DNA of 64,000 bases from Escherichia coli (GCF_002854065.1 NZ_CP024151.1), one strand, 5' to 3'. Counted from the stretch's first letter, positions 3,330-41,805 are shown. Numbers and translations: made by a program. Notes: generated by a model from the sequence alone, not told the origin.

Positions 3330-4336
3330 TATTTGCGGTTGCCGGCTCGGGCAAGACCACGCTGCTGATACAGCGGTTGAGTGAGGACCGGCGGACGCTG
3401 ATCCTGACCTTCACCGTGAATAATGAAGCGCATCTCCGGGCGCAGATTATCAGACGTTTTGGCTTTATCCCGGACGGGATCAGGGTGATGACCTGGTTTG
3501 AGTTTCTGCACGGTTTTTGCTTCAGGCCTTTCCTGCAGGAGCAGCTGGCATCGCGTGGGCTGAGCTTCGACCAGCCCCCACCCAGAATACCGCGCACGAA
3601 TGCCCGGCATTATCAGGATCCCGCCGGACGGCTGTATCACCGGAGGCTCGCACACTTACTCACAGCCCGGGGGCTGCTGCCGGATATCCGTACCCGGCTT
3701 GCCCGTTACTACGATGAACTGCTTATCGATGAAGTCCAGGACTTTGCCGGACATGACTTTAATTTTCTGCTGGAGCTCTGCCGCGCGGAAATCACTGTGC
3801 TCTGTTGCGGCGATTTTTATCAACATACCTTTGATACAAGCCATGACGGCAACGTTAATTCAACGCTGCACGATGACATTACGCGATATGAGGCCCGCTT
3901 CGACGCAGCAGGTTTCACGGTTGACCGGGACACGCTCAACCGGACATGGCGTTGCTCAGCTTCAGTGTGCGAGTTTATCACCGGACAACTGAACATCCGT
4001 ATCGCTGCCCATGGGATACATGCCACCCTGATTGAAACGATCACAGATGCAGAGCGCACAGCCACCCTGCACGCCGATAATACGGTGATTAAGCTCTTCT
4101 ATCGTGAACATCACCGTTACGGCTGCTATTCCATGAACTGGGGCGTCAGTAAAGGGCTCGACCACTTTCAGGATGTCTGCATTGTGATGGGATCTTCCCA
4201 CTGGAAGCTTCTGACCCGTCAGGAACTGGCAGCCCTTCCACCGTCGTCCCGTAACAGGCTGTACGTGGCATGCTCACGGGCGCGCGGCAACATTTATTTT
4301 GTTCCCGAAATTCATCTGCGCCGATTCCGGAACTGA
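3314..4336 (+). CDS. Compact UvrD/Rep-like SF1 helicase (340 aa), GajB-like partner of the OLD nuclease
   Basis: Motif I AVAGSGKTTLL, motif II LLIDEVQDF, motif III GDFYQ, motif VI-like VACSRARG; start overlaps the last 16 nt of the OLD gene and its AGGAGG RBS lies inside the OLD 3' end, indicating translational coupling. Confidence 0.75.
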   Translation: MDKRVIFAVAGSGKTTLLIQRLSEDRRTLILTFTVNNEAHLRAQIIRRFGFIPDGIRVMTWFEFLHGFCFRPFLQEQLASRGLSFDQPPPRIPRTNARHYQDPAGRLYHRRLAHLLTARGLLPDIRTRLARYYDELLIDEVQDFAGHDFNFLLELCRAEITVLCCGDFYQHTFDTSHDGNVNSTLHDDITRYEARFDAAGFTVDRDTLNRTWRCSASVCEFITGQLNIRIAAHGIHATLIETITDAERTATLHADNTVIKLFYREHHRYGCYSMNWGVSKGLDHFQDVCIVMGSSHWKLLTRQELAALPPSSRNRLYVACSRARGNIYFVPEIHLRRFRN

Positions 4337-4469: not shown

Positions 4470-4620
4470 TGCGCAGCATATCCACATGCCACGCATCTGC
4501 ATAGGGCAGACATACGCATATGTCAGTCATCTGCATATGTTACACCTATACAGACCAGTCCGGCAGGCATATACTGCACATATGTACTCACACATCATGC
4601 ATGATCAGCCGGAGGAACAT
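4470..4620 (+). promoter_or_regulatory. Second vagCD-type operator/promoter region (diverged duplicate)
   Basis: Same family of CATCTGCATATG / GCATATG palindromes as at 940-1030, upstream of the second vagC copy. Confidence 0.45.
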
Positions 4621-4622
4621 CC

Positions 4623-4853
4623 ATGCGCACAGTTTCGATATTTAAAAACGGCAATAACCGCGCCATCCGTCTGCCCCGGGACCTGGATTTTGACGGCGTC
4701 AGCGAGCTGGAGATCGTCCGGGAAGGGGACAGCATCATTCTGCGTCCCGTCCGGCCGACCTGGGGCTCGTTCGCGCAGCTGGACAGGGCCGATCCGGACT
4801 TTATGGCGGAGCGTGAGGATGTGGTCAGCGATGAAGGACGCTTTGAGCCATGA
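4623..4853 (+). CDS. vagC: Second VagC/VapB antitoxin copy
   Basis: 76-aa ORF about 90% identical to the first copy (MRTVSIFKNGNNRAIRLPRDLDFDGVSELEIVREGDSIILRPV...). Confidence 0.8.
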   Translation: MRTVSIFKNGNNRAIRLPRDLDFDGVSELEIVREGDSIILRPVRPTWGSFAQLDRADPDFMAEREDVVSDEGRFEP

Positions 4854-4993
4854 AGAAAACCTGGATGCTCGACACTAACATCTGCTCGTTCATCATGCGC
4901 GAGCAGCCGGCAGCGGTGCTGAAGCGCCTGGAGCAGGCGGTGCTGTCAACGCCACGATGTTTGACCGTTATTTGCCATTTTCATGCCCGCTAA
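4850..4993 (+). pseudogene. vagD: Truncated vagD/vapC (PIN toxin) remnant
   Basis: MKKTWMLDTNICSFIMREQPAAVLKRLEQAVL matches the vagD N-terminus for about 32 codons, then homology ends at about 4945 where IS21-family-derived sequence begins; the reading frame runs into unrelated sequence and stops at 4993. Confidence 0.75.
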
Positions 4994-5003
4994 GATACTT
5001 TCG

Positions 5004-5787
<784 letters not shown>

Positions 5788-5791
<4 letters not shown>

Positions 5792-6429
5792 AACAGCTCC
5801 TCATAGGCACTCAGTGGTCGATGTTCCACCTGACTGACCTGCTGCCAGAGCGGGGCGTGATGCTCCGGCACTGTCTGCCAGCCAGACGATGCCGGACAGA
5901 GGCGATGTGAGGCCACCAGTTTCTCATTACTGTAGATCCGCAACTCGTCATCCAGCGATATTCGTATCGATACTGGCTGACCACACAGCGCTTCGGGAAC
6001 GCTGTAACGATTACCACCAACCTCGATATAGCTGTCCCAGGACACATGGCGGATGTCGAAGTAACTGGTATCGAAGTCCGTATCCGGTAACGGCTGCAGA
6101 TGTTCCTGCTCCAGCGCGAAGCGCTGTTCCGGCGTTTCTTTGAACTGGCGAAGCTCCCGTTTGTCAGCCACATCGGCTATCCATTGCTCCAGTTGTTGAT
6201 TAACATGAGTGAAGCTGTCGAACCTGCGGTACCGGACGAAGAAGTTCTCCTTGAGGTATTTCACCATCCGCTCAACCTTACCTTTTGTTCTGGCCCTGCG
6301 TGGACGGCATGCCCGTGGCAGGAAGTTATAGTGGTCGGCCAGCAACAGGAATCCGGAGTTGAACACGACTTTCCCGTTGTTATTCTTCAGCACCGCAGCC
6401 TTCTGGTTATCAACCAGCACCGTTTTCAC
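5788..6429 (-). pseudogene. istA: istA (IS21-family transposase) C-terminal fragment
   Basis: Translation ...[24 protein letters not shown]... is characteristic of the IstA C-terminal region; the N-terminal catalytic part is absent. Confidence 0.7.
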
Positions 6430-6990
6430 ACAACCACCGAATTTGATCCCTGAAAACTGTCAGCGCTGCGAGGACGAAGAAAGTATTACGGCTAAAGCCG
6501 TAATACCTCCCCATCCAGCTTCAAGCTATGTAGAAACTTATGTGGGTAGAGCAGTCCCGACAGGGCAGTACCGCATTGACAGGCCGTCAGGGCCACTTAC
6601 GAGCTTGTATGACAAGGGGGGCCGTCTGGATATAGCGAATTATTGTACGGTAAGCCTTTTTTGAACAGCCTTACCTATTGCTATAGAGGGGAACTCCTAC
6701 GTTATACGCCGCTTTCAGGGGATTCGACCTTAATGAGACAACTCAAATATGATCGACAACTTAAACGCGATAGTTGCTGATAAAATCAATCCATTACGCG
6801 TTTCAATTGATTAAATAATGCACTTAATGTACAAAAATTCCCGATCTCAAAACTGAACCCTAAAGATACCAGGCATCTCCCCCAGGAAGCGCCCTCATGC
6901 GTTTTCCTGTTCCGCCCCTGCCACCTACCTTCTGTTTCATACTTGTTGTATTATTGTTTTTGTTTTCAATCCCCAAGGAGACGTCGCTAT

Positions 6991-7158
6991 ATGACTGTGC
7001 GGGAGACAGAGGAAAACATTGAACAAATCTTCCCTGAGCTTTCGAACTTAATTGATATTATTAATAAATGGCTTTCCCATGGAAACATTGATCCTGAACT
7101 GGCACACTTCATCATTTATCTTCTTGATTACCTAACCACCACACACAAAAGCATATAA
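6991..7158 (+). CDS. Small hypothetical protein (55 aa)
   Basis: ATG at 6991 preceded by AAGGAG at 6976-6981; a rho-independent terminator follows at 7274-7301. No family recognised. Confidence 0.45.
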   Translation: MTVRETEENIEQIFPELSNLIDIINKWLSHGNIDPELAHFIIYLLDYLTTTHKSI

Positions 7159-7273
7159 AAATTTTCCTTGCACATCCATTTTTTTGCGAATATTATTATT
7201 CCTGCTGAATATGATTCAATATCGCACGCTACTCATCCATCCCAGGATAATGAGTACATAGGTTGAAGTTTCA

Positions 7274-7301
7274 ACACCCCCATTACGGGGGTGTTTTTTT
7301 T
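7274..7301 (+). terminator. Rho-independent terminator
   Basis: 8-bp GC-rich stem ACACCCCC / GGGGGTGT with a 5-nt loop, followed by a T7 tract. Confidence 0.7.
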
Positions 7302-7776
7302 ACCAATAAACACAAATCACACCATCGCCATACTCTGTTTGCCAGACATCGATTGGTAAATATGCGTAACTCGCTATAATACAAAAAGAAAAATCAGAAC
7401 CAGAAACCAGTTTCCAGATAAAAAACACCCTCCCGAAGGAGGGGACAGACACATTCATATTTCCCAAAACAGGAATTTTTATTTTTATGACGCATTAATG
7501 AAGTTACTTCATCTCCAGTAGATTAACTTCATTTAAAGTGGCGATCAATCATATTTATTACGACTCTAAACTATTACAACAACCACAATAAGATATCACC
7601 TCAAATATAAAAGATAACTCTTACAAAAACGTTCCGAAAACAAAAAATACAGATAAACACCAATAAAAAACAGAAAACTCTTACACATTTAAAGATGGTA
7701 AAATAATATAGAACTGTTAGTCTAATGGAGAAGGCGCATCTGATTCAGAGCAATCTATTGCGAAGAATCAGAGTAA

Positions 7777-7815
7777 CAGGGCCCCATGATATAATCATGG
7801 GGCCCTGTTGCTTTT
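7777..7815 (+). terminator. Strong hairpin terminator (13-bp perfect stem)
   Basis: CAGGGCCCCATGA-TATAA-TCATGGGGCCCTG followed by TTGCTTTT. Confidence 0.6.
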
Positions 7816-8059
7816 ACAGATGTAAAAACGACCAATCATTTAACATCTGTTATCGGCACCGCCCCGGACGGGTTCGGCGCAAATATGGTATGGTACCAGC
7901 CCGGCAATTCACCTGCCGTGCAATCTGACGAAGCAGTACCGGCGTATGCAGATATATCGTCCAGACATATCTGCCGCATTCAGGCGGTGAGTAAAGCCTT
8001 CTCTCTCAAAAGAGGAGCAACAGTTATCCACAGATTCTGGGGATAACTGCGAAAAGAAT

Positions 8060-8200
8060 ATGTGCCAGGAAAGTCGGCTCCCGGGAAAAAGACCGCTGGC
8101 GGCGCAGCTGCTGGATACGAAAGCTGAGCTGAAAGGATCCCGGGAGGACGTCCGTAAACTTCAGTCCCTGGCCCGTCATGACGGGAAGGTGAAAAAGTGA
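8060..8200 (+). CDS. Small hypothetical protein (46 aa), first gene of an overlapping pair
   Basis: ATG at 8060; its TGA stop (8198-8200) overlaps the GTG start (8197) of the next ORF in a GTGA junction. Not in the ORF track because it is under 60 aa. Confidence 0.35.
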   Translation: MCQESRLPGKRPLAAQLLDTKAELKGSREDVRKLQSLARHDGKVKK

Positions 8201-8838
8201 ATGCGGACACCTGGACCCGCCTGCAGGCCTTCCGACATGCTCTGGAGCTGACTTCCTGTGAGGCTTCTCTCACCGCCGGGTATGATCACCTGAAGGATTT
8301 CCCGGCCGGTTGCAGCGAGCTGGCCAGCCAGACGCTGACTGATTATCTGACGGAAGACGGCAGCAACCTGTACTCCTGTATTGTCGGTATGCAGTGGGAT
8401 AATGGTCCTGGCAGATACGGCCACGTCATTGCCGCCCCTGCCAGGGACTATATCGACCTGACCCTTGATCAGTTTCCAGGCTATCATAACCGGATTGTGG
8501 CAGAGCCCGTTGAGTCCGGCGGACAGCTCGCGGCAGACCTCAACAGGGAGCCTGCCATCAGTACAGCTGATGGAATAGTGGCCAGCGCATCAGATAAGGT
8601 TAATTACATTACTGAACAGAAAAATCGCCAGCCAATGGTGATCATTACAGAATGTTACAAGCTGATCAGAATAACGGCAAGATTTATACCAATGTGCCAG
8701 TCATCTCAACTCTTCCAGCACCAGGTATTCCCTCGCTTATTTATCATTTCAGACGTTGGCTCCTGCAGTTTGTCCAGGAACACCTTAGATCGTTTAGCTA
8801 CTGACTGGAAGGTGACACTGTCCATCCTGTCGCTATAG
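8197..8838 (+). CDS. Hypothetical protein; 3' end uncertain
   Basis: 213-aa track ORF starting at GTG; no recognisable domain; the tail overlaps a convergent minus-strand ORF (8706-9026), so the true stop is uncertain. Confidence 0.35.
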   Translation: MNADTWTRLQAFRHALELTSCEASLTAGYDHLKDFPAGCSELASQTLTDYLTEDGSNLYSCIVGMQWDNGPGRYGHVIAAPARDYIDLTLDQFPGYHNRIVAEPVESGGQLAADLNREPAISTADGIVASASDKVNYITEQKNRQPMVIITECYKLIRITARFIPMCQSSQLFQHQVFPRLFIISDVGSCSLSRNTLDRLATDWKVTLSILSL

Positions 8839-39264: not shown

Positions 39265-39839
39265 ATCCGATTAGTTGTTAATCATATTTAATCATAGTGA
39301 TTACTTTCAGACGGAACAAGACAAATAATGCGCGTCAGCGCATGTAAGGCGGCATACGGTGGTTACATGTAGCACAGGAGTAAAACCGCCGAAGCCCGGC
39401 GTAAGCCGGTACGGACTGATAGATTTCACCTTACCCATCCCCAGCCCTGCCAGACCATACCCGCTTTCAGCCATGAGAGAGCTTCTGTGCGCGGTCGGAG
39501 TGGTCCCGACGAGGGTTTACCCGAAGTCGGGGCGTATCTCCGCGTTAGCGGGCCGTCAGGGCCGCTTACGAGCGTGTACTGAGAACTTCCAGCCAGAAGA
39601 CTGACAGCAATGATAATGTAGTTACAACATTCATAATTAAAAGCGACTCTGTTCCGGCCCGAAGGGCCGGGGCGGGGCCGCTTTTCAGTTATGAGGGAGG
39701 GGCTTTGTGGTTTCAGTTCTGCGCGGGACCGGGGTTTTCCTGGTGGTTGTATTTGAGTGTTGTAACTAAAATGGCTCCGGTCGGGGCCCGCCGCTTGCGG
39801 TGGGAGGTGCATATCTGTCTGTCCACAGGACAGGCAGTG

Positions 39840-40174
39840 AATAGGTTTTCTTTTTAAATGAATGTAGTTAAGTAGTTTAAAGGAGATATAAACAGGTGTT
39901 TAAAAGATACATTGCACCCTGTAAGGCTGGCGGATGGCGCTTTATGACATGAACGGTTGTAACCTTATGGGGAAGTCCCTTGCAGTTAAATGTGGATAAG
40001 CAAAATTCCTCGTCTGTGAGGCGTGTTTTGTATCAAAAACAGGAGGGACCGGATGCACCTGAAGGTGGATGATGAGGTTGTTTTTTGTATGCGGTGCTGT
40101 TTTTTTGTTCGCCGACAGGCTTCAGGCGTGCAGATGCCTCCGGTGCGGGCCGGATTATTCAGAGGAGGTCACTT
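39840..40174 (-). promoter_or_regulatory. RepFIIA origin region downstream of repA1 (approximate), with a DnaA box at 39991-39999
   Basis: Position immediately 3' of repA1 as in R1/R100-type replicons; TGTGGATAA (reverse complement of TTATCCACA) at 39991-39999; GC-rich hairpin-prone sequence at 39640-39800 further downstream. Confidence 0.45.
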
Positions 40175-41032
40175 TCAGGGGGAAGCTGTGGCCAGCCGGC
40201 TGTAATTACGGTTACGTGACAGAATCATGCGCTCTTTCACACGACGCTCCACTTCGCGTTTTACCGCCTCACGATTGGCAGTGAAGCGCCCTTCCGAGAT
40301 TTCACGCGTCAGCTGCCGTTTCACCAGGGTGACGATATCCTGACGTTCCCTGTTCGCATCACGACGCGCACGGGCACGCTTTATTCCACGGGACTTAAGC
40401 TCTGTCTGGTAACTGCGGAAACGCTCACGCACAAAACGCCAGGCTTTCGCTATCAGTTCATCCATACCCAGGGTATCCAGTCCCTGCTTTTTGCGCTGTC
40501 TGTTTTCCCATTCAACACGACTGCGGCGCGCAGCAACTACTGCATCCTCAGACACATCAAGGGCGGCAAATAGCGCCGGTGTGAACGTGATATCGGTCGG
40601 AATGTAGCACCCGATAAGCGGATCATATTCCGTCTGGTAGGTAATCAGTCCCAGCTCTGCAAGGAACGTCAAGGCTCGGGTGGCCCGGGTGATGGAGAGT
40701 TTTCCGGCAGCAGACTCCGTCGCCAGTCCGCACTCAATGGCCAGCGTAGTGATGGAGCACTGGACGCGGTTGGCCAGCGGGTCATAGTGAAAACACAGCC
40801 CCTGCAGCAGCGCATCAATAGCCCGGCGACGCAGTACCGGTGGCATGCGCCGACGCAGTCCCTTCGAACGGGCATGTGCCACATGAATGGCGAAATCAAA
40901 ACGGGAGGTGAAGCCCACCGCCTTTTCCATCAGTTTTTCGCAGAACTTCAGCGTTCCGGCACCTTCACGGGGTGTGAACACCGGATTCGGGTTTTTAACC
41001 TGTGAATAGTATTTTTGAAGGAGATCAGCCAT
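40175..41032 (-). CDS. repA1: RepFIIA replication initiator RepA1
   Basis: 285-aa protein [111 protein letters not shown]...; the track ORF begins 13 codons upstream at an alternative start. Confidence 0.9.
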
Positions 41033-41574: not shown

Positions 41575-41615
41575 ATAACTATACTCCCCGCATAGCTGAA
41601 TTGTTGGCTATGCGG
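41520..41615 (+). ncRNA. copA: Candidate CopA-like antisense RNA overlapping the tap start
   Basis: Plus-strand stem-loop CCGCATAGC-TGAATTGTTG-GCTATGCGG followed by TTTT at about 41584-41614, antisense to the repA leader and the tap initiation region; boundaries approximate. Confidence 0.35.
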
Positions 41616-41805
41616 TTTTATGGGGCCCCGGTAATCTTTCTAGTCGCCAAACTTGAAGAAGATTATCGGGGTTTTCGCTTTTCTGGCTCCTGTAAATCCA
41701 CATCAGAACCAGTTCCCTGCCACCTTACGGCGTGGCCAGCCACAAAATTCCTTAAACGATCAGCAATCTACCACTCACTCCTGAGATAAGCAAGAATGTG
41801 AATAT

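Follow-up and report, generated by a model that had tools for sequence, protein, structure and literature searches.

A repeat in an Escherichia coli plasmid probably marks half of an IncFII-type priming element and a decayed relic of it

Results

Two copies of a short repeat and their surroundings

The window, a 64-kb stretch (64,000 nucleotides) of plasmid DNA from Escherichia coli (GCF_002854065.1, NZ_CP024151.1), holds two copies of a short sequence, copy A at 6.5 kb and copy B at 39.5 kb, whose surroundings are given in Table 1. As a first-pass annotation of this DNA had it, copy A adjoins an IS21 remnant: fragments of IstA and IstB occupy 5004-6429 on the - strand, the remnant cuts the F-like sequence at 6440/6441, and similarity to plasmid F starts at 6441, with 99.8% identity over 6440-6900 (the block of copy A corresponds to about 40.4-40.9 kb of F). 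The right-hand neighbour of copy A is a miniature element of Tn3 type, here called element X, which the annotation had not recorded. Downstream of copy A, the UptR small RNA follows at 0.6 kb and the RepFIB rep gene (10013-10990) at 3.4 kb, and there is no oriR nearby.

Copy B had been placed downstream of a RepFIIA origin, and it does indeed lie there, with CopA, repA and a DnaA box located beside it. The order is CopA, repA, DnaA box, two Ter sites and then the conserved element of which copy B is a part, the Ter pair being inverted and lying between oriR and that element; the layout of R100 is identical, Ter pair included. For oriR we assume the 188-bp extent of R1. Replicons of this type replicate away from repA, and with repA on the - strand this makes the + strand the leading-strand template; as the tra genes likewise lie on the - strand, it is the + strand, too, that conjugation transfers.

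Table 1 Features at and around the two copies of the repeat (window coordinates unless another record is named)
Feature	Coordinates	Strand	Evidence or remark
IS21 remnant: IstB fragment and C-terminal part of IstA	5004-6440	-	NCBIfam IS21 transposase/IstB, partial, below cut-off
Possible decayed 5'-module remnants	6458-6511	+	GTCAGCGC, and CGGCTAAAGCCG hairpin at 6484-6507
Copy A: probable decayed partial module b-c of an IncFII-type G-site region	6512-6612	+	nhmmer
Element X: 244-bp Tn3/Tn21-type miniature inverted-repeat element	6617-6860	.	inverted repeats read in four copies
UptR small RNA	7204-7295	+	Rfam, 123 bits; intrinsic terminator; in the F-like block from copy A to the RepFIB rep gene
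Conserved ssDNA element of the IncFII-family replicon (putative G-site region)	39325-39580	+	extended profile, 283 bits
5' module: alpha 39329-39344, beta 39345-39393, gamma 39394-39413	39329-39413	+	three hairpins
Putative primase start motif CTGCCAGACC	39447-39456	+	motif identity with G4-type phages
Module b-c (copy B)	39485-39576	+	folds into two adjacent hairpins
Stem A, CGGAG...CTCCG, encloses hairpin 1 (39505-39531)	39496-39542	+	
GCGTTAGC mini-hairpin, overlapped by stem B	39542-39549	+	
Stem B (hairpin 3)	39543-39570	+	
Second CTG (GTGTACTG), alternative candidate start at the 3' edge of b-c	39579-39581	+	
Ter (Tus-binding) consensus site	39619-39632	-	exact match to GNRNGTTGTAACKA
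Ter (Tus-binding) consensus site	39755-39768	+	exact match to GNRNGTTGTAACKA
oriR	39812-39999	-	DnaA box observed; 188-bp extent presumed from R1
DnaA box TTATCCACA	39991-39999	-	exact match, 176 nt past the repA stop
repA, IncFII-family initiator	40175-41032	-	Pfam IncFII_repA, 92 bits; RefSeq annotation of identical plasmid
CopA antisense RNA	41592-41680	+	Rfam
oriT-proximal 5'-module homologue of F: alpha and gamma blocks, exact CTGCCAGACC at end	L028 15497-15631 (F ~65.40-65.53 kb)	-	
oriT-proximal 5'-module homologue of R100: alpha and gamma blocks, exact CTGCCAGACC at end	L036 5508-5640	-	

The two copies are homologous over about 100 nt

A repeat search of the window aligned 6571-6609 with 39540-39578, 39 nt at 85% identity and ungapped. 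In a MAFFT alignment of the two copies the similarity runs further to the left, through the GTCCCGAC box that is present in both (6554-6561 in copy A, 39503-39510 in copy B), and a hairpin arm of about 20-22 nt in copy B is missing from copy A. By using an nhmmer profile made solely from homologues in other replicons, without either copy from the window, we recovered copy A at 6515-6611 (E=1.5e-9) and its counterpart in plasmid F at 40687-40783 (E=1.4e-10). A longer profile matched 6512-6612 (E=8e-9) and also 39325-39612 (283 bits), while a profile of the 3' module only gave E=2e-6 in the window and 3e-7 in F; the family profile found no further match when run over the 64-kb window, the whole of F and phage G4. 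The homologous spans thus come to about 6512-6612 for copy A and 39463-39580 for copy B. The box and the core of the first-pass annotation stand, and the true spans are slightly wider than it reported.

That the similarity is due to chance, or that both copies are simply the ends of a known insertion sequence or transposon, has a negligible probability in our judgement. It is true that the ungapped repeat measures just 39 nt and that copy A sits between the IS21 remnant and a Tn3-type inverted repeat. The profile match, however, spans about 100 nt at E-values of 1e-9 to 1e-10, which is not what a low-complexity 20-30-mer without flanking conservation would give, and the copies are not the ends of one IS: the Tn3-type repeat begins at 6617, past the end of copy A, the left flanks of element X are unrelated to one another, and copy B is syntenic with repA in many genera and has no mobile element beside it.

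The window contains other repeats. Direct repeats at 1050-1349 and 4623-4922 (300 nt, 86% identity), with short iteron-like repeats upstream of them (934-1011 and 4498-4552), correspond to two vapB-type antitoxin modules in the record of an identical plasmid. The large inverted repeats 15414-16618/22512-23716 (1205 nt, 100%) and 16614-17908/36102-37396 (1295 nt, 95%) are probably insertion-sequence copies that bracket cargo segments.

Copy B is the origin-proximal half of a conserved structured element

The sequence shared with copy A is only the origin-proximal half of an element of about 255 nt, a context that the first-pass annotation had missed, together with a phage-like start motif outside the interval that it gave. 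In R100 the 290-nt element recurs (281 bits), and its distances from repA, the DnaA box and the Ter pair are unchanged. Across the replicons collected for the family alignments (13-17, depending on the alignment), the core lies 500-800 nt downstream of an IncFII_repA-family gene wherever enough flank is available. The carriers are IncFII(K)/IncFII plasmids of Enterobacter and Klebsiella and an IncI-gamma/K plasmid of Salmonella, and a 23-nt pattern found the core in genomes of Pantoea, Erwinia, Siccibacter, Klebsiella and Escherichia. In several carriers RepA scores only 24-35 bits against Pfam and the core is still present. The exception to the linkage with IncFII_repA is a module in an IncX5 plasmid and in Citrobacter freundii.

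Compensatory changes occur in hairpins throughout the element (alpha, beta, gamma, 1 and 3). In the 5' module, the alpha stem reads GCGC/GCGC, CCGC/GCGG or GCCC/GGGC in different replicons, the beta stem GGCGG, GGCGCC or GGCGAC, and the gamma stem changes from CCGGC to GCGGC. The loops of this module are often mini-hairpin motifs of the form GCG(N)NAGC, and the apex of gamma, GGCGTAAGCC, resembles that of hairpin I of the phages G4 (GGCGAAAGCC) and alpha3 (GGCGTTAGCC). Gamma is followed by a spacer and then by CCCTGCCAGACC.

Within this region lies the putative primase start motif. The pattern CTGCHARRCC has a single match in the window, at 39447-39456, and its CTG is invariant in all 17 aligned replicons, five of which carry the G4 version of the motif (CTGCAAAGCC) and three the alpha3 version (CTGCTAAGCC). 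The former is the mapped primer start of G4 (annotated at 3998), and the latter is found at the corresponding place in alpha3. In per-sequence DNA folds, the motif is predicted to be unpaired between structured domains in most of 13 sequences.

On the origin side of the motif, RNAalifold and per-sequence DNA folds agree on the two hairpins of module b-c. Across the alignment 95.7% of cells are paired, four pairs are changed on both sides, and the covariation score is reached by none of 500 shuffles. Conservation across the element peaks in block c, where 44 of 52 columns are invariant and pairwise identity averages 0.96, against 0.47-0.73 in the 5' module. This invariance is partly built in, 10 of the 17 counted sequences, those from the genome collection, having been found by the 23-nt pattern inside block c; the 29 columns outside the pattern, on which the search set no condition, are nonetheless invariant. 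The fold of copy B has z=-2.9 on the + strand (none of 200 shuffles as good) and z=-1.3 on the - strand. Since the better fold, the G-T pairs and the GCG(N)NAGC motifs are all found on the + strand, and the latter two only there, we regard the + strand as the active one.

The element resembles the G site, a primase-dependent initiation site

A coding role of the repeat is ruled out by frame-breaking indels of 1-2 nt between family members, and no protein family matches either copy, in keeping with the non-coding status first assigned to them. A promoter or terminator role was likewise rejected, with no such signal in either copy and none flanking on the + strand; hairpin alpha looks like a terminator on the - strand of the window, but its T-tail is not conserved across replicons. 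The annotation had also left open a conserved structured site of RNA or of DNA, and of these two it is the DNA site that copy B matches, as single-stranded DNA. A structured RNA, whether a small RNA or a cis-regulatory one, strikes us as highly improbable. It would agree with the conserved, covarying hairpins and with G-T (G-U) pairs on one strand only. Against it, Rfam has nothing for either copy at gathering or permissive thresholds (E up to 10), the + strand shows nothing like a promoter or a terminator beside either copy, the loops have the form of DNA mini-hairpins, and the motif adjoining them is that of a primase start site. Replication of R1 in vitro is, moreover, reported to be independent of RNA polymerase.

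The known site that comes closest is the G site of R1 and R100, reportedly described by Masai and Arai in 1989, Bernander et al. in 1992 and Tanaka et al. in 1994 as a primase-dependent single-strand initiation site (ssi) of G4 type downstream of oriR. We take R100, which carries the present element, to be the plasmid in which it was characterised. The two agree in replicon type, position, strand and layout, in the CTG motif of G4-type phages and in hairpins on the leading-strand template. They differ in that the repeat flags the neighbouring module b-c, which follows the start motif on its 3' (origin) side, and in that copy A is without start-site features. T39448 of the motif is separated from the nearer edge of the DnaA box by 551 nt and lies about 364 nt beyond the presumed end of oriR, which fits a leading-strand start that in R1 is located some 380-400 bp downstream of oriR. 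From this we infer that 39325-39460 is the G site proper, with the primer starting opposite T39448. The link to the published site is drawn from position and motifs. An ssiA of F lies upstream of repE, and an R1 mini-replicon has been drawn with an 'ssiA'.

The comparison with the phages points in the same direction, within limits. The oric regions of G4, alpha3 and St-1 share with the plasmid element the CTGCAAAGCC/CTGCTAAGCC motif, the GCG(N)NAGC caps and the arrangement of three hairpins 5' of the start. They have no overall sequence homology to it by blastn or nhmmer, and a blastn search of copy B against 50,697 phage records returned chance matches only. The nearest hairpin stands about 6 nt from the CTG in the phages and about 35 nt from it in the plasmids, and a large invariant structured module 3' of the start is found in the plasmids only. 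As judged from these alignments, the origins of G4 and alpha3 appear to be related to the plasmid element by motif and architecture only.

Our first idea had been that the primer starts at the second CTG, that of GTGTACTG at the 3' edge of b-c. One could then consider b-c itself as the real G site, with its hairpins copied as in G4 and with copy A as a dead G site. Hairpins followed by a CTG on their 3' side are indeed the order of G4, which also shares the TACTG; block c holds GCGTTAGC, which in alpha3 and St-1 forms the mini-hairpin of hairpin I; b-c is the most conserved part of the element; and its distance from the DnaA box, about 411-420 nt, also fits a start about 400 bp beyond oriR. 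This CTG, however, is confined to copies of the E. coli and Salmonella type and varies in Enterobacter, Klebsiella, Pantoea, Erwinia and Siccibacter, so that most replicons outside E. coli lack it despite an invariant block c. The exact 10-nt motifs of G4 and alpha3, with their invariant CTG, are found at 39447-39456 instead, and F and R100 hold a second 5' module with the motif and without b-c. We accordingly downgraded the idea: the second CTG seems a less likely start than the motif at 39447-39456, and a G site located in b-c is unlikely.

The start unit and module b-c occur apart from each other

When F and R100 are searched with the 5' half alone as profile, each yields a second, weakly matching copy (E=7e-4 and 6.5e-3), and this copy is without b-c. 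It lies near oriT on the transferred strand, between a DUF932 gene and a transglycosylase (SLT-domain) gene just upstream of traM, and it is probably one of the F ssi sites that Nomura et al. reportedly mapped in 1991. In common with the oriR-linked element it has the alpha and gamma blocks, and it shares CTGCCAGACC exactly. In copy A the situation is reversed, b-c being there and the 5' module and start motif not, and because the two halves are thus each found without the other, the 5' module and b-c appear to be separable. In Klebsiella pneumoniae ATCC 13883 (L026) and Pantoea stewartii (L013), moreover, an alternative 5' module (...CACGGTAG joined to CTGC...) runs straight onto the start motif, and the former also retains a decayed standard 5' module upstream of the alternative one, which indicates that priming modules occur in tandem and get shuffled.

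Since b-c accompanies the origin-linked start and not the oriT-linked one, we infer that it serves priming from unwound duplex DNA. One could go further and set b-c apart from the classical G site altogether, as a separate, near-invariant ssDNA structure of IncFII-family replicons for origin-dependent rather than conjugative priming. We think this rather unlikely, and the published minimal G site of R100 may include part of b-c. Were b-c separate, it could keep the 550-nt origin-proximal gap open, exclude SSB or RecA, or dock a host factor, and the copy in F would be evidence of a module that travels and decays independently of the start site.

Copy A is a decayed partial module

Copy A aligns to positions 139-262 of the 294 of the model only, that is, to b-c without the start unit, and what there is of it is heavily altered. 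The apex of its hairpin at 6582-6594 is GGCCGTCAGGGCC; the 3' arm of hairpin 1 is absent, as is the lower stem, the GCGTTAGC mini-hairpin is destroyed and replaced by GCATTGAC, and 3 of the 7 pairs of hairpin 3 are broken, one of them through a G-to-A substitution at 6595 peculiar to this plasmid. Invariant columns are changed at 17 of 44 positions in block c and at 7 of 15 in block b. The first-pass annotation had called both copies hairpin-rich, which holds for copy B but not for copy A, whose fold has z=+0.6 and is equalled by 136 of 200 shuffles. The + strand of 6512-6612 contains no CTG, and no start motif either. Taken together, these changes suggest that copy A is probably a broken, dead relic, an evolutionary scar and no new working element, which would have lost its function.

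Alternatively, copy A might still work in F-type plasmids, as an ssi signal or a structural hairpin of the strand that is transferred, and might be among the F ssi sites mapped in 1991. It could then help the recipient to make the complementary strand, or help to prime the lagging strand near RepFIB. It lies on the + strand, which is the transferred one, and points the same way as the functional members of the family; the GGCC/GGCC hairpin apex and CTTACGAGC have survived in it; and it is found in about 350 plasmids, identical in F and pUTI89 except for position 6595. Yet the region around it is near-identical as a whole, which accounts for this retention, and variation within the lineage of copy A is so close to nil that selection for or against it is not measurable there. 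The missing CTG and start motif, the deleted and broken hairpins and a fold no better than those of shuffled sequences all speak against function, which we consider decidedly unlikely.

As to where copy A came from, the first-pass annotation had proposed a relic of a second IncF replicon. The sequence of copy A is relic-like, in that it breaks both invariant positions and hairpins, and it is homologous to an element that is otherwise all but confined to IncFII-family replicons. The rest of a replicon is not there: a blastn search (word size 7) of 6000-8300 of the window and of the corresponding part of F (L001 4000-7000) against the replicon region at 38.5-40.4 kb returned only the 39-40 nt core, no remnants of repA, copA, oriR or Ter were found beside copy A by blastn, with no rep-gene remnant in the window or in F and no Ter site near 6.5 kb. 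Because of this, a decayed replicon at copy A rests on about 100 nt. Immediately to the left, 6484-6507 forms a perfect 10-bp hairpin, GTATTACGGC-TAAA-GCCGTAATAC, which might be a remnant of gamma, and the homology might extend into remnants of alpha and gamma. A gapped local alignment of 6458-6511 with 39325-39466 gives this extension weak support (p of about 0.03), with scores at least as high in 32 of 1000 shuffles and in 6 of 181 genomic controls.

The right-hand neighbour of copy A

Element X has terminal inverted repeats of 38 bp (6617-6654 and 6823-6860, GGGG...GTAAG) and no transposase. Relatives at 72-76% identity occur in about 1400 plasmids of many genera, including ColE1-like plasmids of 4-8 kb, and its left flanks are unrelated in five plasmids, which marks it as a discrete unit. 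In its 38-bp GGGG...TAAG repeats, the lack of a transposase and its many contexts, it is like Tn3-derived miniatures such as TIME-like elements and IS101 of pSC101; it differs from them in that no 5-bp target duplication is found at the flanks of four copies. Rfam, at gathering and permissive thresholds, has nothing for element X, and the family profile found no b-c remnant in its left flank in a small Klebsiella plasmid. In other plasmids IS110-family genes (IS4321/IS5075-like) adjoin the element.

A nearly complete G-region without hairpin gamma is present in the IncX5 plasmid (L009 3298-3553) and in a large Citrobacter freundii plasmid (L031 1298-1553), with no IncFII repA within 3.5 kb in the former and 1.5 kb in the latter. 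It is flanked by a RelE/ParE toxin-antitoxin pair, and in the IncX5 plasmid a DinQ-like type I toxin gene (dqlB) adjoins it as well. In both it directly abuts a Tn3-type miniature element, 7 nt from the position of the junction in F. The abutment of G-region and element X in F, IncX5 and Citrobacter may be a coincidence or may reflect a site preference.

Discussion

The account that we favour, and that we hold to be likely as a whole, is that copy B is one half of the ssDNA element of a G-site region and copy A a non-functional relic of its module b-c. In such a scheme, RepA and DnaA would load DnaB at oriR, and the duplex would be unwound towards lower coordinates. The exposed + strand would fold into the three 5' hairpins followed by the unpaired CTGC-A--CC motif, at which DnaG primase alone could lay the leading-strand primer, with its presumed start at T39448, to be extended away from oriR. 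Module b-c, located between this start and the Ter pair and oriR, would then be an accessory structured domain for origin-dependent priming, which could prevent the unwound strand from closing, or keep SSB off and dock primase. Some old event, either a recombination or the activity of a mobile element, would have left copy A in the vicinity of the F-type RepFIB.

The annotation of F-type plasmids thereby gains an explanation for an odd repeat. Copy B belongs to a known type of site that goes unmarked: no feature overlaps the G-site region of about 255 nt in the gene tables of the plasmid records examined, and it has no Rfam family. The 6.5-kb copy carries little functional weight, and is best seen as a dated scar of replicon-proximal DNA shuffled with miniature Tn3-type elements.

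For the replicon family, the alignments suggest that the G-site region is among the most conserved non-coding parts of IncFII, IncI, IncK and related replicons. The comparison splits a primase start unit of phage type, which is found by itself near oriT as well, from a two-hairpin block that stays near-invariant while RepA diverges close to the detection threshold of Pfam, a disparity that points to recognition of this block by a conserved component of the host.
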